Shown here piece by piece: positions 24,301 to 62,611 of a stretch of DNA of 64,000 nt. Source of the DNA: an uncultured Acetatifactor sp. (GTDB lineage: Bacteria; Bacillota; Clostridia; Lachnospirales; Lachnospiraceae). A model generated the notes under the pieces. That model was not told the origin of the DNA. It was given only the letters and a program-made list of their open reading frames with translations, and made no database searches. The stretch is taken from the NCBI GenBank assembly GCA_947625475.1, contig CANQOL010000003.1, forward strand, positions 65,134 through 129,133, written 5' to 3'. The translations under genes and the position numbers were made by a program. The first letter of the stretch is position 1; each line of letters opens with the position of its first letter.

Positions 24301-26228
<1,928 letters not shown>

Positions 26229-26889: not shown

Positions 26890-27545
26890 GATATTACAGT
26901 AAATAAATTTTAGTTATGGTTTTATTTTATAATTTTTTTAATATATAAACATTATTTCGGATTTTTTACTGCCGGGGCGGGACGAAAAAGGAGGGAAAAG
27001 AGTGCCAGATGGGACATTCGGCGGCGAATTCAAGAAAAACTCTTGTATAAAAACGATAGATATGGTAATATATTCCAGAGAATTCAAGGGCATAATGGTG
27101 TACCACCCGATGAGGCTGCAACCTCATCGGGCAAGGATGGTAACAGGGCTACCACACGATACAGACAAGCGTCTGCGATACACACATGTATCATTATAGG
27201 GCAATTTGCCCCAAATTACAATGATTTTATGTGGAAAAGCGGCGCGGGTCTGAGCCTTCGTTGTTGTATAACGGCAAGGTGCATGGTGTGGACGCATACC
27301 GGCACCTTGTTCTTGATTTCTCACCGGGGAGGGAGGCCTGCTTTTTGGCCCTCCCGGTTTTCCCCGTGTGAGAAGTCGGAGTTTGAGAGAACTGCGGCTG
27401 TGGTTGGTCTGCGGTTCTCTTTTCTTTTTCTCCGCATTGGGGGAATTTGCCGGGCGGAGGTCTCCGATTCTCAAGTCTCTACTTTGCATCGGCCGGGAGA
27501 GCCGAAAAGGGCGCCCGGCACAATTCTCAGAAGGAGGAAAAGGAC

Positions 27546-29216
27546 ATGAGAAAGAGAAACTGGAAAAGGCTGCCTGCCCTCTTGGGAGCGGGGATACTGG
27601 CGCTGTCCGGTACGCTGGGGGCATCCGCCGCAGAGCTGAAGGATCTTTTTGATCCGGAGTACTATGCGGATACCTACGCGGACGTGGAGAGCGCCTACGG
27701 CCACGACGCGGATGCCCTGTGGAAGCATTACCAGGAACACGGCATGCAGGAGGGGCGAAATGCCTGCCCATACTTTGATGTGCGGTATTACAGGGAGCAC
27801 AACGGAGATCTGGAGGAAGCCTATGGGGACGACTGGAGCGCCTACTATGAGCATTTTTTGGAGCATGGGATTTTGGAGGGGCGCAAGGGGTCGGAGAACG
27901 GCTTTGACGCGAAGGACTACCTGAGCCGGTATGCGGATCTGCAGGAGACGATCGGGGAGGATCCGGCGGCCCTGTTTGAGCATTATATCGAGCACGGCTA
28001 CAAGGAGGGAAGGGACGGGAAGCCCGAGCCCACACCTGCACCCGCGCCTGTGGTGAGTGTACCCCAGACCCCGGCAGCGGAGCCGGAGAATACGGCGGAA
28101 CCGGAGGCAACAGAAGTGCCAGAAGTGACGTCGGACCCCACTTCGGAACCGCAGCCGACGGAAACGGCTGCTCCTGTGCCGACTTCGGCACCACAGGAAT
28201 CTGATTTCATTCCTTGGTCGGAGGCGGGACTTGAAGATCATGTGATGGATTGGCAGGATGACAATTTGGAAGCGGCAATGCGTCAGATTACTGGAATTAA
28301 AGATCGGGATATTATGCTCAGTGACGTATGGGAAGAAGAAATATTAGGACTGGCTGCAAAAAAGATTACAAATATCAGTGCGTTATCTGAATTGAAAAAT
28401 CTGAAACGGTTGGAGCTAATTAGTAATCAGATTAGTGATATTAGCGCCTTGTCTGGCTTGGTAAATTTGGAGTGGCTGGATCTCTCAGGAAATCAGATCA
28501 GTGATATTAGTGCATTGTCAGGACTAACAAATCTAAAAGATGGGTTGCGTTTGAGCTGGAATAAACAGATTAGTGATATCAGTGCACTGTCAGGTTTAAC
28601 AAAACTGATAAGTTTAGAACTGGAAGATAATCAGATCAGCGATATTAGTGCTTTGGCAGGGCTGACAAATCTTCAAGTTTTGGAATTGAATTATAATCAA
28701 ATTAGTGATATCAGCGCACTATCAGGCATGACAAAGCTGGGATATTTGTCCTTATCCGGCAATCGAGTTAGTGACATCAGTACACTGTCAGATATGACAA
28801 ATTTGTATTCTTTAGCATTAGGAGGGAACAATTTCAGCGACATCAGCGCACTGTCTGGCTTGAAAGGATTATCCACCTTGTATTTGGGAAATGATCAGAT
28901 TCACGATATCAGTGTATTAGCGGGACTGACAGATCTGGAACATTTGGAGTTATGCGGTACACAAGTCAGCGATATTAATGCACTGGCCGGATTGACAAAG
29001 ATGGATATGTTGGTTATGTCTTCTAATCCGATGCTTAGTGACATCAGTGCACTGTCAGAAATGAAAAACCTCTATTATTTGGATATAAGTTCTAATCAGA
29101 TTAGAGATATCAGTCCTTTGTCTGGTTTGGAGAATTTGTACACGGTGTTTATTTACGGGAATCCTATCACAGACTATTCTCCGGTAGATCATGTATCGAA
29201 TGTCTACAAAGATTAA
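27546..29216 (+). CDS. Secreted leucine-rich-repeat (internalin-like) protein with N-terminal ~40-aa repeats and a Pro/Thr/Glu linker.
   Basis: Signal peptide is MRKRNWKRLPALLGAGILALSGTLGASAAE. A ~40-aa repeat x3 reads FDxxYYxxxxxDLxxAxGxDxxAxxxHYxEHGxxEGR. There are at least 14 22-residue LRRs (LxxLxxLxLxxNQISDISALSGL). The RBS GAAGGAGG precedes the start. Confidence 0.65.
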   Translation: MRKRNWKRLPALLGAGILALSGTLGASAAELKDLFDPEYYADTYADVESAYGHDADALWKHYQEHGMQEGRNACPYFDVRYYREHNGDLEEAYGDDWSAYYEHFLEHGILEGRKGSENGFDAKDYLSRYADLQETIGEDPAALFEHYIEHGYKEGRDGKPEPTPAPAPVVSVPQTPAAEPENTAEPEATEVPEVTSDPTSEPQPTETAAPVPTSAPQESDFIPWSEAGLEDHVMDWQDDNLEAAMRQITGIKDRDIMLSDVWEEEILGLAAKKITNISALSELKNLKRLELISNQISDISALSGLVNLEWLDLSGNQISDISALSGLTNLKDGLRLSWNKQISDISALSGLTKLISLELEDNQISDISALAGLTNLQVLELNYNQISDISALSGMTKLGYLSLSGNRVSDISTLSDMTNLYSLALGGNNFSDISALSGLKGLSTLYLGNDQIHDISVLAGLTDLEHLELCGTQVSDINALAGLTKMDMLVMSSNPMLSDISALSEMKNLYYLDISSNQIRDISPLSGLENLYTVFIYGNPITDYSPVDHVSNVYKD

Positions 29217-34336: not shown

Positions 34337-34479
34337 AAGGGACGCCCCGGGAAAAGGTATTTTGTGCGCCCGGGGCATTGACAAGAGACCGTTATGATGC
34401 TATGATGGAGCAAATGCGGCAGGTTAATGAAATAGGGTAGAGGTTGCGCGTTTTATCAGTAGCTTTCCGGATGCGTCAG

Positions 34480-34682
34480 GCGCAGAGGACGGGAAGGGAA
34501 AGGAAAACGCGCCGAAAGAGGCGGTGCCTGTTCACCGCATCTTGGGCATGGGGTTAAGAGCCACATGACTGTCATCTGTATTTTAGATGGGGCGCTATCG
34601 GAAGAGAATATCAGAGGGAAGGTTTTGGAGAAGAGATTTCCCGGATATCAGTCGTCGGCGCGTTATCGTGCCGGCGTTTTTG
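34480..34682 (+). promoter_or_regulatory. Probable lysine riboswitch (L-box) with an intrinsic-terminator expression platform, in the dapA-dapB leader.
   Basis: Conserved L-box blocks are present: GGAAAGG, GCGCCGAAAG, ACTGTCA and TGGGGCGCTATC. The terminator GTCGGCGCG...CGTGCCGGCG plus TTTTT lies at 34652-34682. The element sits upstream of lysine-biosynthesis genes. Confidence 0.5.
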
Positions 34683-55914: not shown

Positions 55915-56208
55915 ATGAGCGATCTGAAAAAGCTGGCGGAGCTGACCAAGCTGGGAAGCCTCCTCCGGAAAGAGGAGAAGGAGGCAGAGGCGGACAAGAA
56001 GTTTACCGTGGTCTTGTGGGTGCTGGCGGTCATCGGCGTGATCGTGGTAGTGGCGGCTGTGGCCTACGCGATTTACCGTCATTTCACTCCGGATTACCTG
56101 GAGGACTTCGAGGACGAGTTTGAGGACGAGGAATCCGAGGAAGAAGAGGAAGAGGAAAAAGAAGAGGAAGAAGAGGAAGATATCTTCGAGGACGAGGGAG
56201 AGAACTGA
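55915..56208 (+). CDS. Small single-TM protein with a poly-acidic C-terminal tail.
   Basis: The TM segment is VVLWVLAVIGVIVVVAAVAYAIY. The tail reads EDFEDEFEDEESEEEEEEEKEEEEEED. The RBS GGAAGGCGAAGG precedes the start. Confidence 0.35.
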   Translation: MSDLKKLAELTKLGSLLRKEEKEAEADKKFTVVLWVLAVIGVIVVVAAVAYAIYRHFTPDYLEDFEDEFEDEESEEEEEEEKEEEEEEDIFEDEGEN

Positions 56209-56212
56209 TCGG

Positions 56213-57877
56213 ATGAAAAAGGGCCAGGTATACACCGGTGTGGTGGAGCGTGTTGAGTTTCCCAACAAAGGGATCGTGCGGGTGGGGGAGGAGACATGCA
56301 TCGTAAAGAACGGCCTGCCCGGACAGAAGATTTCCTTTGCGGTCAATAAAGTGAGAAAAGGGAAGGCGGAAGCCTGTCTGCTGGAGGTGCTGGAGAAATC
56401 CCCTCTGGAGACAGGGCATCCGTGTTCCCATTTTGGCGTGTGCGGAGGATGCACCTATCTGTCCCTCCCCTACAGGGAGCAGCTTCGGATCAAGGGGGAG
56501 CAGGTAAAGGCTTTGCTGGACGGCGCCCTCTCCGGCCAGGAGGGAGGCTATGTCTGGGAGGGCATCAAGGCCAGTCCCAGGGAGTATGAGTACCGCAACA
56601 AGATGGAGTTTTCTTTCGGAGACGAGTACAGGGAAGGGCCCCTGTCTCTGGGCATGCATAAGCGGGGCAGCTTTTACGATGTGGTATACACGCCGGACTG
56701 CCGGATCGTGGACGGGGACTACCGGGTGATCTGGGGGGCGGTGCTGGCCTATTTCCGGGAGAGGGGGATCTCCTACTTCCACCGGGTCAGGCACACCGGC
56801 TATCTGCGGCACCTGCTGGTGAGGAAGGGCTTTGCCACCGGGGAGATCCTGGCGGCGCTGGTGACCACCTCCCAGGAGCCGGAGGCAGCAGGGGAGCTGC
56901 TGGAGGGCTTTAAGGAGCTGCTCTTGAACCTGGAGCGGCAGGGAGAGCTTTCCGGGCACCTGGCGGGGATCCTGCACATCACCAACGATTCCCAGGCGGA
57001 CGTGGTGCAAAGCGACGGGGCGCAGGTGCTCTACGGCAGGGAATATTTTTATGAAGAGCTGCTGGGGCTGCGCTTTCGGGTCTCTGTCTTTTCCTTTTTC
57101 CAGACCAACTCCTTCAGCGCCCAGGTGCTGTACCGGACTGCCAGAGAGTATGTGGGAGAGTGCCGGGGACAGACCGTGTTCGACCTTTACAGCGGCACGG
57201 GCACCATCGCCCAGCTCATGGCCCCCGCGGCCCGGAGGGTGATCGGCGTGGAGATCGTGGAGGAGGCGGTGGAGGCCGCCCGGGAGAACGCAGAGCTGAA
57301 CGGTTTACATAACTGTGACTTTATAGCGGGGGATGTGCTGAAGGTTTTGGACGGGCTGGAGGAAAAACCCGGGCTGATCCTGCTGGACCCGCCCCGGGAC
57401 GGGGTCCATCCGAAGGCGCTGCCCAAGATCATCGGCTACGGGGTGGAACGGATCGTGTATATCTCCTGCAAGCCCACCAGCCTGGTGCGGGATTTGGAGG
57501 CATTCCTGGCGGGCGGCTACCGGGTGGAACGGGCTGCGGCGGTGGACCAGTTCCCTTGGACGGGGAATGTGGAGACGGTCTGTCTTTTGTCCAAACTCAA
57601 TGTCGAACATCATATTGAGGTGGAATTAAATTTGGATGAGATGGATTTGACGGCGGCGGAGAAGAAGGCCAGTTATGAGGAGATTAAGGCGTATGTGCTG
57701 GAGCATAGCGGACTAAAGGTAAGTAATCTTTATATTGCGCAGGTTAAGAGGAAATGCGGGATTATTGAGAGGGAGAATTATAATAAGGCGAAGGCAGAAG
57801 GCGTGAAAGTGCCCAAGTGTCCGGAGGAAAAGGAGAGGGCAATCAGGGAGGCGTTAGAGTATTTTAAGATGGTGTAA
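56213..57877 (+). CDS. rlmD: 23S rRNA (uracil-C5)-methyltransferase RlmD/RumA-like (TRAM + [4Fe-4S] + SAM-methyltransferase) with an unusual ~95-aa C-terminal extension.
   Basis: The TRAM domain reads VYTGVVERVEF.... The cysteine cluster reads CSHFGVCGGC. The methyltransferase motifs are DLYSGTGTI and ...DPPRDG. ~460 aa would be expected, but the protein continues to 554 aa. Confidence 0.7.
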   Translation: MKKGQVYTGVVERVEFPNKGIVRVGEETCIVKNGLPGQKISFAVNKVRKGKAEACLLEVLEKSPLETGHPCSHFGVCGGCTYLSLPYREQLRIKGEQVKALLDGALSGQEGGYVWEGIKASPREYEYRNKMEFSFGDEYREGPLSLGMHKRGSFYDVVYTPDCRIVDGDYRVIWGAVLAYFRERGISYFHRVRHTGYLRHLLVRKGFATGEILAALVTTSQEPEAAGELLEGFKELLLNLERQGELSGHLAGILHITNDSQADVVQSDGAQVLYGREYFYEELLGLRFRVSVFSFFQTNSFSAQVLYRTAREYVGECRGQTVFDLYSGTGTIAQLMAPAARRVIGVEIVEEAVEAARENAELNGLHNCDFIAGDVLKVLDGLEEKPGLILLDPPRDGVHPKALPKIIGYGVERIVYISCKPTSLVRDLEAFLAGGYRVERAAAVDQFPWTGNVETVCLLSKLNVEHHIEVELNLDEMDLTAAEKKASYEEIKAYVLEHSGLKVSNLYIAQVKRKCGIIERENYNKAKAEGVKVPKCPEEKERAIREALEYFKMV

Positions 57878-57930
57878 TAATATGGAATGCAGAAGGCTTC
57901 ATTCATGAATAGAAATGTGGTATATTTATG

Positions 57931-57943
57931 TTTGGTATAATAC
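57931..57943 (+). promoter_or_regulatory. Extended -10 promoter element TGgTATAAT for the unknown two-gene cassette.
   Basis: Read from the sequence, 16 nt upstream of the RBS GAGGAGG. Confidence 0.4.
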
Positions 57944-57956
57944 GAGGAGGAAGAGT

Positions 57957-58466
57957 ATGGATAAAGAAAAGATCAAAGAAGATTTGAGCATATGTTATTT
58001 AAAGACTATTGCCGCTATAAATGGTATTGCTATGGAAAGAATAGAACATGATGAAGATAGTGTTGATGTTGTAATAAAAAAAATAATATATTTAAAAAAT
58101 GGTGGAAAGTTTAATTCACAGATAAGTGTACAGTTAAAAGCAACAGCTTCTAGTTCTCAATATAATATTAGCAATACTGAGATTTCATATTTGTTAAAGG
58201 CGAAAAACTATAATGACTTATGTGCACCAGCATCTATGCCAAGTATATTAGCTTTATTAATTTTGCCAGAAAATGAAACTGAATGGATTAGATGGAGTTC
58301 TGAAGAATTAATGATAAAAGGGAAAATGTTTTGGATTTCGTTTCAAGGTAAGGAGGAAACAAAGAATGTTAGTCATATTACTGTAAAAATACCTAAAGAA
58401 AATGAGTTAAATGCAATAACGATAGAAACTTTAATACAAAAGGTGGCAGAGGAGGGAATGATATGA
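57957..58466 (+). CDS. Small protein (169 aa) of unknown function, DUF4365-like (tentative). It is the first gene of a two-gene cassette adjacent to the type I R-M.
   Basis: MDKEKIKEDLSICYLKTIAAINGIAMERIEHDEDSVDVVIKK... resembles the N-terminal pattern of DUF4365 proteins as I recall it. Its stop overlaps the next start (ATGA). Composition is AT-rich. Confidence 0.4.
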   Translation: MDKEKIKEDLSICYLKTIAAINGIAMERIEHDEDSVDVVIKKIIYLKNGGKFNSQISVQLKATASSSQYNISNTEISYLLKAKNYNDLCAPASMPSILALLILPENETEWIRWSSEELMIKGKMFWISFQGKEETKNVSHITVKIPKENELNAITIETLIQKVAEEGMI

Positions 58467-59605
58467 TATATTCTATAAATTTTGTAGATATGACATTGAA
58501 GTTAAATCCCTTGGCAGTAGCAAAATATTTAATAGATACTCAGTGGAAAGAGTATTTGGTAAAACGAAATGATATAAAAATTTTTCAATATGAAAAAGAT
58601 GATACATTTGAACAGGTTACGGTACCGTTAGAGAAAAATTTGCGGGATTATAAACAAATAATGTACGAAACTATTTGTAAAATAGCATATATTGAAAAGA
58701 AATCTGTGGAGCAACAAATGTTATATTTACTTAATCCAAATACAGATATTTTAAAAATACGTCTTGATAGAAAAGAAGTAGAATCTGGGAATATAATGTT
58801 TGACGATGCTATACAATTGTATGATAATGCAAAAAAACTATTAGCAGCGACTGCATTAGATATTATAAATCCCAAAAGGATACATTGGGGAAGAATTGAT
58901 GATTCGGTTCAACAATTTTTGACACGATGCAGATTTGGTCAAACAGAAATTGGAAGCTATGTTGTATCTGTTGTGTGTCCGTTTGCAGAATTATCAGAGG
59001 CAGAAGGTTATAAACAGTTAAGCATATTTTCTGATGAGGAACGATGTGCTAATTCACTTACAAGAAAAGTTACAAATAGATTGATGTCTAATATTGCAAT
59101 AATTAAAAAAAAGGTAGACGAGGGTAATTTGGAATCGTTAGTCAATTATGAAGATGGTATTAGCTCAAATTTTTATGAAGCGTTAAATGGTATGGATTTA
59201 TACTCTGAAAATACGAGCGTGGAATTTATAGCAGAGTGGTCTCCTATAGTTAAAAGTAATAGAAGTCCAATCGAAAAGGTAATGATTACAAATGACTATT
59301 ATGAGCCTCTGCAAAGTGTAATATCAAAAATAAAAGAATGTACTAATGAAAGAACGGAAATAATTGGTAAGATTAAAGACCTGAAAGCGGCACCAATTAT
59401 CGATAAGCGCAAGTTTGGAACTGTGGTTGTAGTTTATATTAGCGGTAATGGCAAGGCGAAGTCCGTTAAAGTAAAATTAGATAAAGAAGATTATGATAAT
59501 GCAGTCATGGCTCATCAATATGGAAAAACAGTAAGATTGATTGGCGAGTTGAAAGAGGCACCAAGAGCAATGATGGAAAATACTTTATTTAGTGTAATTG
59601 AGTAA
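58463..59605 (+). CDS. Hypothetical protein (380 aa) with no recognisable motifs, translationally coupled to the upstream DUF4365-like gene.
   Basis: There is a 4-bp start/stop overlap. It shares the AT-rich composition of the island. No NTPase, nuclease or HTH motifs were seen by eye. Confidence 0.4.
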   Translation: MIYSINFVDMTLKLNPLAVAKYLIDTQWKEYLVKRNDIKIFQYEKDDTFEQVTVPLEKNLRDYKQIMYETICKIAYIEKKSVEQQMLYLLNPNTDILKIRLDRKEVESGNIMFDDAIQLYDNAKKLLAATALDIINPKRIHWGRIDDSVQQFLTRCRFGQTEIGSYVVSVVCPFAELSEAEGYKQLSIFSDEERCANSLTRKVTNRLMSNIAIIKKKVDEGNLESLVNYEDGISSNFYEALNGMDLYSENTSVEFIAEWSPIVKSNRSPIEKVMITNDYYEPLQSVISKIKECTNERTEIIGKIKDLKAAPIIDKRKFGTVVVVYISGNGKAKSVKVKLDKEDYDNAVMAHQYGKTVRLIGELKEAPRAMMENTLFSVIE

Positions 59606-59654
59606 TAACAAGTAAAGTAGCAATGTATTTACATGGATAATTGGAGAAAAGACA

Positions 59655-61478
59655 ATGGACAACAAAAGCATAAAAAAACTGGAAGCTGATCTTTGGGAAT
59701 CTGCAGATCTGCTCCGTGCAGGATCAAAGCTGACCTCTCAGCAGTATTGTATGCCGGTACTCGGTTTGCTATTTCTGAGGTATGCATATAGCAGATTTAA
59801 GAAAGTGGAAGAAGAGATCTTGAAGGACAGACCAGTTAGGAATGGCCGTGTAATGCCTGTGGAAGCTTCTGACTTCGCTGAGAAGAGCGCGCTGTATCTT
59901 CCGAAGGAAGCACATTATTCCTATCTGGTGAATCTGCCGGAGGATATCAAGGCTGCAAATATCGTGACTGAAAATGGGCAGCAGATGAATAGTCTGGGCG
60001 AAGTTGTGAATCATGCAATGGAGTTGGTAGAGGCTCAATCTGAACAGTTGGCCGGCGTTCTTCCGAAAGAGTACACCAATTTTGCGGATGATCTGCTGGC
60101 AGAGTTATTGCGTATTTTTAACAATAATGCTCTTGATGATGTAGGCGGCGATGTGATTGGACGCATCTATGAATATTTTCTCAGTAAGTTTGCACCGGCG
60201 GTGGCTTCTGATGACGGTGTGTTCTTTACACCGAAGTCTCTGGTAAAAATGATTGTAAATATTTTGGAACCGACTTCCGGTGTTCTGGTGGACATTGCCT
60301 GCGGCAGCGGCGGTATGTTTGTTCAATCCGGCGATTTTGTCAATAGCAAGGGAATGTCGGCCAATAAGTCAATGACGTTTTACGGGCAGGAGAAGGTTGA
60401 ATATAATGCGCAGCTCTGTCTCATGAATATGGCGGTTCATGGACTGACCGGTGTAATTAAGTCTGGAAATGAAGCCAATACTTTCTATAATGACGCTCAT
60501 AATCTAGCTGGGTGTTGTGATTATGTGATGGCGAATCCGCCTTTCAATGTGGACAAAGTAAAGGCAGAAGCGGCTCAAAATGCAGGGAGATTGCCGTTTG
60601 GCCTGCCGGGTGTGAACAAGGCAAATGAAGTTGGTAATGCAAACTATTTGTGGATTTCTTATTTTTATGCGTATCTTAATGAAACCGGAAGAGCCGGTTT
60701 TGTTATGGCATCTTCTGCAACAGATAGCCAAGGTAAAGACAAGGACATTAGAGAGAGACTGATTAAGACCGGTCATGTGGATGTGATGATCAGTGTTGGA
60801 AATAATTTCTTTTATACAAAGAGCCTGCCTTGTAGCTTATGGTTTTTCGATAAGGGAAAAGCAGAGAATCTGAAGGATAAGGTACTGTTTATTGATGCCA
60901 GAAATTATTATACTGTTGTGGATCGCACCCTGAATGAATGGAGCGACTGGCAGTTGAAAAACATGAATGCCATTGTGTGGCTGTATCGTGGAGAAACTGA
61001 CAAGTACCAACAGCTTATAGAGGAATACCATGCTGTTTTGGGAAAGGGTGATTTTGAAGAAATCCTTCATGTCCAGGAGGAGCGCATTAAGACACTGAGA
61101 ATCGAAACCAAGGCAACTGTAGATGCTGCGGCAAAGAAGGATAAGAAGAGAATCCAGGCAGAATTTGATGAGAAAGTAGCCGAGCAGGAAGAACAGCTCA
61201 CGATAGCTAAGGAAGCAGTATGGCTATACAGTAAATTTGGCGATGGAGAGTATCAAGATATTCCTGGTTTCTGCAAGATTTCTAATCGGGATGAAATTGA
61301 AGAAAAAGGCTGGTCATTGACTCCAGGTGCATATGTTGGTGTTGCTCCGATCGAGGATGACGGTGTTGATTTCCATGAACGTATGGATGAGATCCATGAA
61401 GAATTATTGAAGCTTCAGGAGGAGAGTAACCGACTGATGGATACCATCTCAAAGAACTTAAAGGAGATGGGGATATGA
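59655..61478 (+). CDS. hsdM: Type I restriction-modification system DNA methyltransferase subunit HsdM.
   Basis: The HsdM N-domain reads LWESADLLRAGSKLTSQQYCMPVLGLLFLRY. The SAM-binding motif is VDIACGSGGMF. The catalytic motif NPPF is present (VMANPPFNVD). Confidence 0.85.
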   Translation: MDNKSIKKLEADLWESADLLRAGSKLTSQQYCMPVLGLLFLRYAYSRFKKVEEEILKDRPVRNGRVMPVEASDFAEKSALYLPKEAHYSYLVNLPEDIKAANIVTENGQQMNSLGEVVNHAMELVEAQSEQLAGVLPKEYTNFADDLLAELLRIFNNNALDDVGGDVIGRIYEYFLSKFAPAVASDDGVFFTPKSLVKMIVNILEPTSGVLVDIACGSGGMFVQSGDFVNSKGMSANKSMTFYGQEKVEYNAQLCLMNMAVHGLTGVIKSGNEANTFYNDAHNLAGCCDYVMANPPFNVDKVKAEAAQNAGRLPFGLPGVNKANEVGNANYLWISYFYAYLNETGRAGFVMASSATDSQGKDKDIRERLIKTGHVDVMISVGNNFFYTKSLPCSLWFFDKGKAENLKDKVLFIDARNYYTVVDRTLNEWSDWQLKNMNAIVWLYRGETDKYQQLIEEYHAVLGKGDFEEILHVQEERIKTLRIETKATVDAAAKKDKKRIQAEFDEKVAEQEEQLTIAKEAVWLYSKFGDGEYQDIPGFCKISNRDEIEEKGWSLTPGAYVGVAPIEDDGVDFHERMDEIHEELLKLQEESNRLMDTISKNLKEMGI

Positions 61479-62611
61479 GTTGGGAATATGTGACATTGGA
61501 TATGCTTGGAGAAGTTTCAAGAGGAAAATCAAAACATAGACCAAGAAATGATGCGTCTCTGTTTGGCGGCAAATATCCATTTATACAAACAGCTGATGTT
61601 AAAGATGCACCTTTTTACATCACATCGTATAGTGACACTTATAATGAAACAGGTCTCGCGCAAAGCAAGCTATGGAAGAAGGGAACTCTTTGTATTACTA
61701 TTGCTGCAAATATTGCAGATACTGCAATACTTGATATTGATGCGTGTTTTCCAGATAGCGTAATGGGCTTTATACCTTATGAAGAAATCTCGGATGTAAG
61801 ATTTGTCAAGTATAGTTTTGATATGTTGCAACGGGATATGCAGCAAATATCACAGGGAACAGCTCAGGATAATCTCTCGTGGAAGAAACTATCTACAATA
61901 AGGTTTCCGAAACCTCCGATTGAAGTGCAAAGGAAGATAGCAGATGCTTTAGTTTCATATGAGGATTTAATTGAGAACAATCAGAAACAAATCAAATTAC
62001 TGGAGGAAGTAGCGCAGAGACTGTATAAAGAATGGTTTGTGGATCTGCGTTTTCCGGGATATGAAAACGTGGAAATTGTTGATGGTGTGCCAGAGGGATG
62101 GAAGTTAGTAGGACTAAATAAATTAGCACCTATTCTTACAGGGAAAAAAGATGCTAATTATGGAACAAGAGATGGGAAATATCTATTTTTTACTTGCGCA
62201 CAAGAACCAATAAAAGCCCCAAGTTATTCTTTTGACTGTAGTGCGGTAATACTCGCAGGAAATGGTGATTTTAATGTAAAGCTTTATCGTGGGAAATTTG
62301 AAGCATATCAGAGAACGTATGTATTTAATCCAACTGATGAAAAGAATTTATATTTAATATTCCACGCAGTGAGAGAAAATATGAGAAATTTGTTTCAAGG
62401 AGCCAGCGGCTCCACAATTAAATTTCTTACGAAAGGAATGCTTGAAAATATAAAAGTATTTCAGCCTTCTAAAGAAATATTGACGTTCTTTAATAAATAT
62501 AGTGAGTCAATTCAGAAAAAAATAGAAGCTTTAAAACAACAGATAATTTTAGCAGCAGAAGCCCGCGACCGCTTACTTCCAAAGCTTATGTCAGGCAAAA
62601 TAGAACTGTGA
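61475..62611 (+). CDS. hsdS: Type I R-M specificity subunit HsdS (two target-recognition domains).
   Basis: Its start overlaps the hsdM stop. Length is 378 aa. Conserved central and C-terminal helical repeats are present (...LLEEVAQRLYKEWFVDLRFPG... / ...AAEARDRLLPKLMSGKIEL). Confidence 0.75.
   Translation: MSWEYVTLDMLGEVSRGKSKHRPRNDASLFGGKYPFIQTADVKDAPFYITSYSDTYNETGLAQSKLWKKGTLCITIAANIADTAILDIDACFPDSVMGFIPYEEISDVRFVKYSFDMLQRDMQQISQGTAQDNLSWKKLSTIRFPKPPIEVQRKIADALVSYEDLIENNQKQIKLLEEVAQRLYKEWFVDLRFPGYENVEIVDGVPEGWKLVGLNKLAPILTGKKDANYGTRDGKYLFFTCAQEPIKAPSYSFDCSAVILAGNGDFNVKLYRGKFEAYQRTYVFNPTDEKNLYLIFHAVRENMRNLFQGASGSTIKFLTKGMLENIKVFQPSKEILTFFNKYSESIQKKIEALKQQIILAAEARDRLLPKLMSGKIEL

Follow-up and report, generated by a model that had tools for sequence, protein, structure and literature searches.

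The stretch of DNA analysed here (hereafter the window) covers 64,000 nt of an uncultured Acetatifactor sp. (assembly GCA_947625475.1, contig CANQOL010000003.1, positions 65,134-129,133 of the forward strand). Towards its 3' end two co-directional open reading frames (ORFs), here named genes A and B, lie between rlmD and the genes of a type I restriction-modification (R-M) system, hsdM, hsdS and hsdR (Table 1). Direct reading bears out what an earlier, sequence-only reading of this DNA had said of their layout: A and B overlap by 4 bp (ATGA), the TGA stop of A (58464-58466) sharing bases with the ATG of B (58463-58465), and the hsdM-hsdS-hsdR genes follow at the distance of about 50 bp given there, the exact gap from the end of B to the start of hsdM being 49 nt. 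The likely start of gene A is the ATG at 57957, which has a ribosome-binding site (GAGGAGG, 57944-57950) just 5' of it and agrees with the 169-residue gene calls made on identical metagenome contigs; an upstream ATG at 57915 is not the likely start. The hsdMSR genes are neighbouring context on the same element and stand outside the two-gene module.

The comparison of both proteins with the profile hidden Markov models (HMMs) of PADLOC-DB placed them in one and the same catalogued family. Protein A matches PDLC04297 (PDC-M02A; E 8.4e-49, profile positions 1-162 of 165), and all 24 PADLOC families that it matches are PDC-M02A, while protein B matches PDLC04321 (PDC-M02B; E 4.7e-163, profile positions 1-383 of 383) and only models of PDC-M02B. 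The acronym PDC, for "phage defence candidate", was given to genes that had been collected from within BREX, DISARM and type I R-M operons (Payne et al. 2024, bioRxiv 10.1101/2024.01.29.577857). In that work, 145 single- and multi-gene PDCs were curated, put into PADLOC and stated to be untested, and a supplementary table lists the cassette CAS_00021 (FAM_01850>>FAM_00842) with a count of 894 and the entry "Assign as candidate PDC-M02" (bioRxiv 10.1101/2024.01.29.577857). The catalogue version that holds PDC-M02 is PADLOC-DB v2.

The window pair shows the traits by which PDC-M02 is recognized, namely full-length matches of both proteins, the two-gene architecture with an adjacent and co-directional A followed by B (FAM_01850>>FAM_00842), and relatives embedded in one of the three kinds of host system (here BREX, at the loci L007 and L008). 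The pair in the window adjoins a type I R-M system rather than being embedded in it, and there is no structural difference. Its membership in PDC-M02 is almost certain. The cassette is a new member of a catalogued candidate family and no new kind of system. The sequence-only reading had called it a candidate novel anti-phage defence system; the PADLOC models uphold the candidacy for defence, and the novelty is lost to the existing PDC-M02 entry. The same reading had granted that a match to an already described defence system would speak against it, and such a match exists in part, PDC-M02 being catalogued as a prediction only.

The HMM searches that the sequence-only reading had proposed as a check thus gave PF14280 together with PDC-M02A for protein A, and PDC-M02B with no Pfam family for protein B. 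Protein A, with its 169 residues, consists of the DUF4365 domain only, and the resemblance to this family that had been noticed by eye proved correct: the match to PF14280 (E 5.4e-19) scores 69.1 bits, well above the gathering cut-off of 24.3, and spans profile positions 1-138 of 139. The AlphaFold2 (AF2) model of the protein (pLDDT 92), compared with the PDB by Foldseek, has SPARDA DREN-APAZ chains as all of its nine best matches, drawn from four SPARDA structures (E 3.5e-6 to 1.5e-4, TMq 0.56-0.62). The predicted catalytic triad, formed by D37 on beta2 and by Q59 and K61 on beta3, is invariant in the family alignment of 78 close relatives and retained in 48-49 of 50 homologues from distant loci, and in a profile alignment it sits on the corresponding residues of XauSPARDA (VQVK motif).

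The same three residues correspond to D41, Q60 and K62 of NbaSPARDA, the catalytic residues of its DREN domain (D41 on beta2, Q60/K62 on beta3), whose mutation abolishes or impairs nuclease activity, D41A also abolishing defence in vivo (PMC12205087). The isolated DREN domain is reported in that study to be monomeric and inactive, and to gain collateral nuclease activity only once the formation of filaments has driven it into a tetrameric state (PMC12205087). A further precedent is provided by EAT16, a toxin of an extracellular contractile injection system (eCIS), in which the same DUF4365 nuclease motif is required for cytotoxicity. Since the Pfam match, the DREN fold, the conserved triad and the precedents of EAT16 and SPARDA all point the same way, protein A is very probably an active nuclease. 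By analogy with the isolated DREN domain, it would be of the kind that requires induced oligomerisation.

Protein B had been labelled an orphan, which the searches do not bear out. A word-indexed search returned 524 homologues, and an exhaustive one 2,330 representatives of 50%-identity clusters at E<=1e-3 (1,216 of them at E<=1e-10); most of the 150 representatives listed are 350-420 residues long, the rest being shorter fragments. Our attempts to place the protein by its sequence gave no match in Pfam or NCBIfam, only the unknown-function families phrog_27905 and phrog_27927 in PHROGs, and nothing credible among PDB chains, whether the query was the single sequence or a profile of 120 members. 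When diverse members of the family were scanned singly, 2 of 120 touched PF01336, an OB-fold family.

Three domains can be told apart in the AF2 model of protein B (pLDDT 85, pTM 0.74). The N-terminal one (residues ~1-105) is of alpha/beta type and the central one (~113-295) of mixed structure, while the C-terminal one (~298-380) is a barrel of five strands and a single helix, modelled as an SSB-like OB fold. No full-length match to this model was found in the PDB. Only the C-terminal 80 residues find a structural match, again to the SSB-like OB fold, and residues 1 to ~295 have no detectable relative of known function. Structure prediction followed by Foldseek, also proposed in the sequence-only reading, accordingly delivered the DREN fold for protein A and the C-terminal OB fold alone for protein B. 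Proteins of the SSB, PriB or RPA32 type share with protein B just this fold, which makes up ~20% of its length, and have no counterpart of its N-terminal ~295 residues. The residues strictly conserved across phyla are W28, D62, D95, G109, G159-Q-T-E-x-G-S165, R201 and S234, and to judge from the alignment this set looks like a ligand-binding or catalytic site.

A locus of a Polyangiaceae metagenome-assembled genome (MAG; L066, 3629-8156) shows part of protein B in another setting. There, hsdM is followed by a gene for a YhcG/DUF1016 PD-(D/E)xK nuclease, and in the product of the next ORF the N-terminal ~160 residues resemble the N-terminal half of protein B (E 7e-19) while the C-terminus is a RhuM domain; no A gene is present at this locus. 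The fusion suggests that the N-terminal module of protein B may be recombinable with other effectors.

To follow the pair beyond the window, we relied on a scan of one genome per species, which yielded 62 loci with a B relative, and on the IMG/VR viral set, with 40 contigs carrying B. The genome loci are spread over Lachnospiraceae, Oscillospiraceae, Succinivibrionaceae, Synergistales, Spirochaetia and Bacteroidales, a planctomycete, Rhodanobacteraceae, Polyangiaceae, Dehalococcoidia and Bathyarchaeia. A homologue of A lies directly upstream of B on the same strand in 54 of the 62 genome loci, and A directly precedes B in 38 of the 40 viral contigs. The eight exceptions comprise two contig-edge cases (L037, L062), three truncated or fragmented copies of B (L034, L048, L049), one locus in which A remains only as two fragments (L022), the RhuM fusion of L066, and L020 (7892-11149), where an intact B without detectable A upstream is preceded by genes for FRG-domain and AlkD-like DNA_alkylation proteins. 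The junction between the two genes is a 4-bp overlap in 21 loci; a further 17 have an apparent 10-bp overlap, which is probably a product of the ORF-start rule used. Genes A and B are translationally coupled and almost always inherited together.

Prophages, plasmids and integrative elements have spread the pair horizontally. Two Mycobacterium abscessus prophages carry it as their genes 1-2, it is also plasmid-borne (including a Methylobacterium plasmid), and in 14 of the 25 viral contigs of at least 20 kb it lies within 5 kb of a contig end, a position that resembles its place at the element boundary in the window.

The sequence-only reading had held that a defence role could be checked by looking for the pair in other genomes apart from hsdMSR, and that it would be undermined if the two genes were never conserved together outside this locus. 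The counts above (54 of 62, and 38 of 40) show the pair well beyond the window, and homologues of the window HsdM, HsdS and HsdR (phmmer) adjoin it in only one of the 62 other genome loci (L066). When the two genes on either side of the pair were tallied over all 62 loci, no neighbouring family was found to recur in more than three of ~55 loci. Because hsdMSR adjoins the pair just once and no neighbour family recurs widely, the pair is a self-contained module, independent of the R-M system of the window. Where it has neighbours with a link to defence, these are varied: at L007 and L008 it is flanked by brxC and pglX, on the same strand within a BREX operon, and elsewhere the neighbours include AbiH, AbiD, MADS components, PDC-S01/S02, methyltransferases and STAND/AAA proteins. 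On balance, a function of the pair in defence appears probable.

The mobile nature of the surrounding DNA could be read directly from a comparison of contigs. The sequence-only reading had described a drop in GC content exactly at the rlmD stop; the drop is real, and its position had to be corrected. The GC content falls from ~0.62 to 0.27-0.33 beginning at ~57587, within the 3' end of rlmD, and the stop codon (57877) lies downstream of this break. Between the window and a contig from a different host (L006), rlmD is only ~60-70% identical at the DNA level and the upstream genes differ, whereas from 57587 on, through A and B, the two are essentially identical (~100%). Because this identity starts at 57587, the final 94 rlmD codons and all that lies downstream belong to a mobile element; counted from its left boundary, A and B are the first genes to be wholly contained in it. 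The DNA of A and B is 100% identical between the two different host species.

The replacement C-terminus of RlmD, 94 residues long (KLNVEHHIEVELNLDEMDL...FKMV), stands in place of the native one in the window and in L001-L006 alike. It matches no Pfam domain, and it is 100% identical in the contigs from the same host (L001-L005, L069, L070) and 92.6% identical in L006. The junction falls just past the codons of the conserved rlmD motif "FPWTGNVETV", and this position, together with the replaced tail, suggests a site-specific integration into rlmD/rumA. No recombinase was seen on the contigs carrying the identical cassette, most of which (L001, L003, L004, L005, L069) break 200-500 bp past a gene for a Cro/C1-type helix-turn-helix (HTH) regulator. 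The shared breakpoint suggests repeated or variable sequence there. The HTH gene (L001-L005, L069, L070) is divergently oriented and follows a gene for a 258-residue protein without a Pfam or PADLOC match, both located past hsdR, ~3.6 kb beyond the window (L001 17364-18923).

Between the same two host species, the 5' region of hsdM (59650-60300, compared with L006 6325-6953) has only 82-97% identity per 60-nt block, which hints at recombination or a faster turnover of the R-M genes, or else at a chimeric metagenome assembly. In an Oscillospiraceae MAG (L013, 7759-11125), a PDC-M02 pair whose B is 62% identical to that of the window lies directly downstream of an rlmD homologue that ends natively, without the 94-residue tail; in this MAG the pair has become associated with the rlmD 3' end a second time, independently of the window.

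The pair had also been credited with an extended -10 promoter of its own. The motif is there, in fact twice, as a putative promoter, but its reading as such was not supported by a scan for the sigma-70 consensus, which reported neither copy because no -35 element is present. The downstream copy, TGGTATAAT, ends merely 15 nt 5' of the ATG of A, so that a transcript from it would begin inside the ribosome-binding site; TGGTATATT, located 15 nt further upstream, is better placed. No terminator was predicted in the interval between rlmD and A or in that between B and hsdM.

Table 1. Features of the PDC-M02 locus and its surroundings, in window coordinates.
Feature	Position (nt)	Strand	Remarks
Left end of AT-rich mobile element	57587-57877	+	host/element junction at ~57580-57590; supplies the last ~94 rlmD codons and the stop
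Extended -10-like motif TGGTATATT	57918-57926	+	read from the sequence; putative promoter
Extended -10-like motif TGGTATAAT	57933-57941	+	read from the sequence; putative promoter
Gene A (PDC-M02A)	57957-58466	+	169 aa; stand-alone DUF4365/DREN PD-(D/E)xK nuclease (predicted)
Gene B (PDC-M02B)	58463-59605	+	380-aa partner; C-terminal SSB-like OB fold (predicted)
hsdM	59655-61478	+	Pfam and PADLOC matches; gene calls on identical contigs
hsdS	61475-62611	+	Pfam and PADLOC matches; gene calls on identical contigs
hsdR	from 62655, running past the end of the window (64000)	+	Pfam and PADLOC matches

Among characterized systems, the closest likeness of protein A is to SPARDA, with which it shares the DUF4365/DREN fold and the D...QxK triad of a collateral nuclease activated by induced tetramerisation (PMC12205087). 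On the other hand, protein A is DREN alone, with no APAZ domain; no Argonaute (Ago) gene accompanies it, the flanking genes being rlmD, B and hsdM; and protein B has neither sequence nor fold similarity to Ago or APAZ chains, which were present in the PDB libraries searched. With no Ago and no APAZ, membership in SPARDA was rejected. Divona, reported as a defence protein of integron cassettes, likewise employs a DUF4365 nuclease domain, but there it is fused to a crr6 domain in a single protein, whereas here the nuclease is separate and protein B has neither crr6 nor any Pfam domain. The toxin EAT16 has the same nuclease motif as protein A, but it is secreted, loaded on a contractile injection system and encoded in an unrelated context with no B partner.

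Overall, the reading towards which we lean, if only just, is that of a PDC-M02 pair acting in defence, which rides here on a low-GC element, at its very left end, inserted into the 3' end of rlmD and next to a type I R-M system. As to how such a pair might work, protein A would be the effector nuclease, monomeric and inactive alone and cutting DNA upon forced tetramerisation, after the model of the isolated SPARDA DREN domain. Protein B would then serve as both sensor and scaffold, keeping protein A dispersed and inactive until a cue of infection arrives. A candidate cue is single-stranded DNA (ssDNA) or replication intermediates bound by the OB fold of protein B; an alternative one is a ligand at its invariant D62/D95/GQTExGS site. 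In either case, cue-bound protein B would promote the oligomerisation of protein A and, with it, a non-specific cleavage of DNA that would destroy the invader or abort the infection. This scheme of B-licensed oligomerisation, drawn by analogy with SPARDA, is offered as a tentative possibility.

To our knowledge, the DREN nuclease has been mechanistically characterized so far only as an APAZ-fused effector in Argonaute systems. A bolder and still less assured proposal is that PDC-M02 does provide defence and is activated in a new way, DREN being switched on without Argonaute or guide. The switch would in this case be a hitherto undescribed sensor domain of ~300 residues (with the invariant D62/D95/GQTExGS/R201) combined with the OB fold; once assembled on ssDNA of the phage or on another cue of infection, this sensor would force DREN to tetramerise.

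Several points weigh against a defence pair that senses through protein B and kills through protein A. All of the strictly conserved residues of protein B fall outside the OB fold, and within it the aromatic and basic residues of the ssDNA-binding type are only moderately conserved. No A-B fusion protein was found among the 150 best representatives of B. Most neighbours of the pair at the 62 genome loci are ordinary, non-defence genes, and in the window itself its promoter and operon structure are possible features, putative as they stand. In the searchable literature we found no experimental test of PDC-M02, its only mention in a text being the one supplementary table, and other PDCs failed on testing (e.g. 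PDC-M63 and PDC-S04); a few others worked.

The alternative that best survives is a toxin-antitoxin or addiction module, in which protein A would be a toxic nuclease and protein B its cognate inhibitor, the two stabilising the element with no dedicated anti-phage role. The tight coupling by a 4-bp overlap, the carriage of the pair on plasmids and at the termini of prophages and integrative elements, the toxicity of the DUF4365 domain in EAT16 and the degraded copies that have lost A and B together (L034, L048, L049) would all suit such a module. We nevertheless find it unlikely, as protein B, more than twice the size of protein A and endowed with three domains and invariant polar residues, fits a sensor or an enzyme better than a simple inhibitor, and as some BREX operons contain the pair within them, in their own orientation. 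Moreover, a toxin-antitoxin function and defence by abortive infection are compatible with each other.

The fold assignments also bear on another interpretation, that of a DNA-processing module of mobile elements, in which a resolvase-like nuclease and an SSB-like protein would act in recombination, replication or integration and have no part in immunity. The DUF4365 fold does resemble Holliday-junction resolvases and homing endonucleases, protein B ends in an SSB/PriB-like OB fold, and the pair is frequent on prophages and plasmids and, in 14 of the 25 viral contigs with a length of 20 kb or more, lies no further than 5 kb from a contig end. However, it also occurs within BREX operons and, at many places in chromosomes, between housekeeping genes, it has no consistent linkage to integrase or replication genes (no neighbour family in more than three of ~55 loci), and functions belonging to the core of an element are rarely so patchy in distribution. 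We rate this interpretation as quite improbable, even more so than a toxin-antitoxin module.

The position of the pair 49 nt 5' of hsdM, with no predicted terminator between them, and the very definition of PDCs by embedding in RM-I, BREX or DISARM could be taken to mean that A and B are an accessory of the adjacent type I R-M system (or of BREX), an extra nuclease subunit or regulator active only with HsdMSR. Given the highly diverse neighbours, and the pair standing alone at prophage ends, this is very improbable, and it was rejected on co-occurrence, homologues of the window hsdMSR being found at 1 of 62 loci. No more credible, in our judgement, is that the pair, placed at the leading end of the element, would serve anti-defence or protect its entry by shielding incoming ssDNA or attacking host defences, a reading for which A and B being the first genes inside the boundary and the SSB-like domain of protein B might speak, but against which stand the conserved nuclease active site kept in protein A, the co-directional embedding within host BREX operons, and contigs that end ~3.6 kb past the window, leaving the element type and transfer origin out of view.

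If PDC-M02, as the favoured reading has it, were validated as a defence family, it would add a very widespread system, as is attested by the catalogue count of 894, by the 2,330 clusters, by members in archaea as well as bacteria, and by its presence on prophages, plasmids and integrative elements. It would also show an Argonaute-free control of the DREN collateral nuclease, which matters for the understanding of abortive infection as well as for the diagnostics in which a use of DREN has been proposed. The family has many members, could be tested at low cost and leaves its mechanism open to study. As new results, this analysis ties PDC-M02A to the DREN effector, whose mechanism is understood, describes an OB fold and an invariant motif in PDC-M02B, finds the two almost always paired across two domains of life, and places the boundary of the island correctly, inside rlmD. 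For the annotation of the window, what had been an "unknown cassette" becomes PDC-M02, and the AT-rich island becomes a mobile element replacing the 3' end of rlmD.

Several other features of the window came to light in the course of this work. In the interval between pcrA and rlmD (55915-56250), a 97-residue ORF has a hydrophobic segment and a poly-Glu tail, and other frames of the same segment hold low-complexity, highly charged ORFs rich in Lys/Arg and Glu. Because of these low-complexity ORFs, the rlmD start at 56120 in the list of ORFs is an artefact; gene calls place it at 56213. No tRNA genes were found in the window. A smaller low-GC patch (27447-29216, GC 0.44-0.51 compared with ~0.60), located just downstream of groEL (24600-26228), encodes a secreted protein of 589 residues that contains a long array of leucine-rich repeats. 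The + strand carries a lysine riboswitch at 34430-34605 (Rfam RF00168, 118.7 bits).

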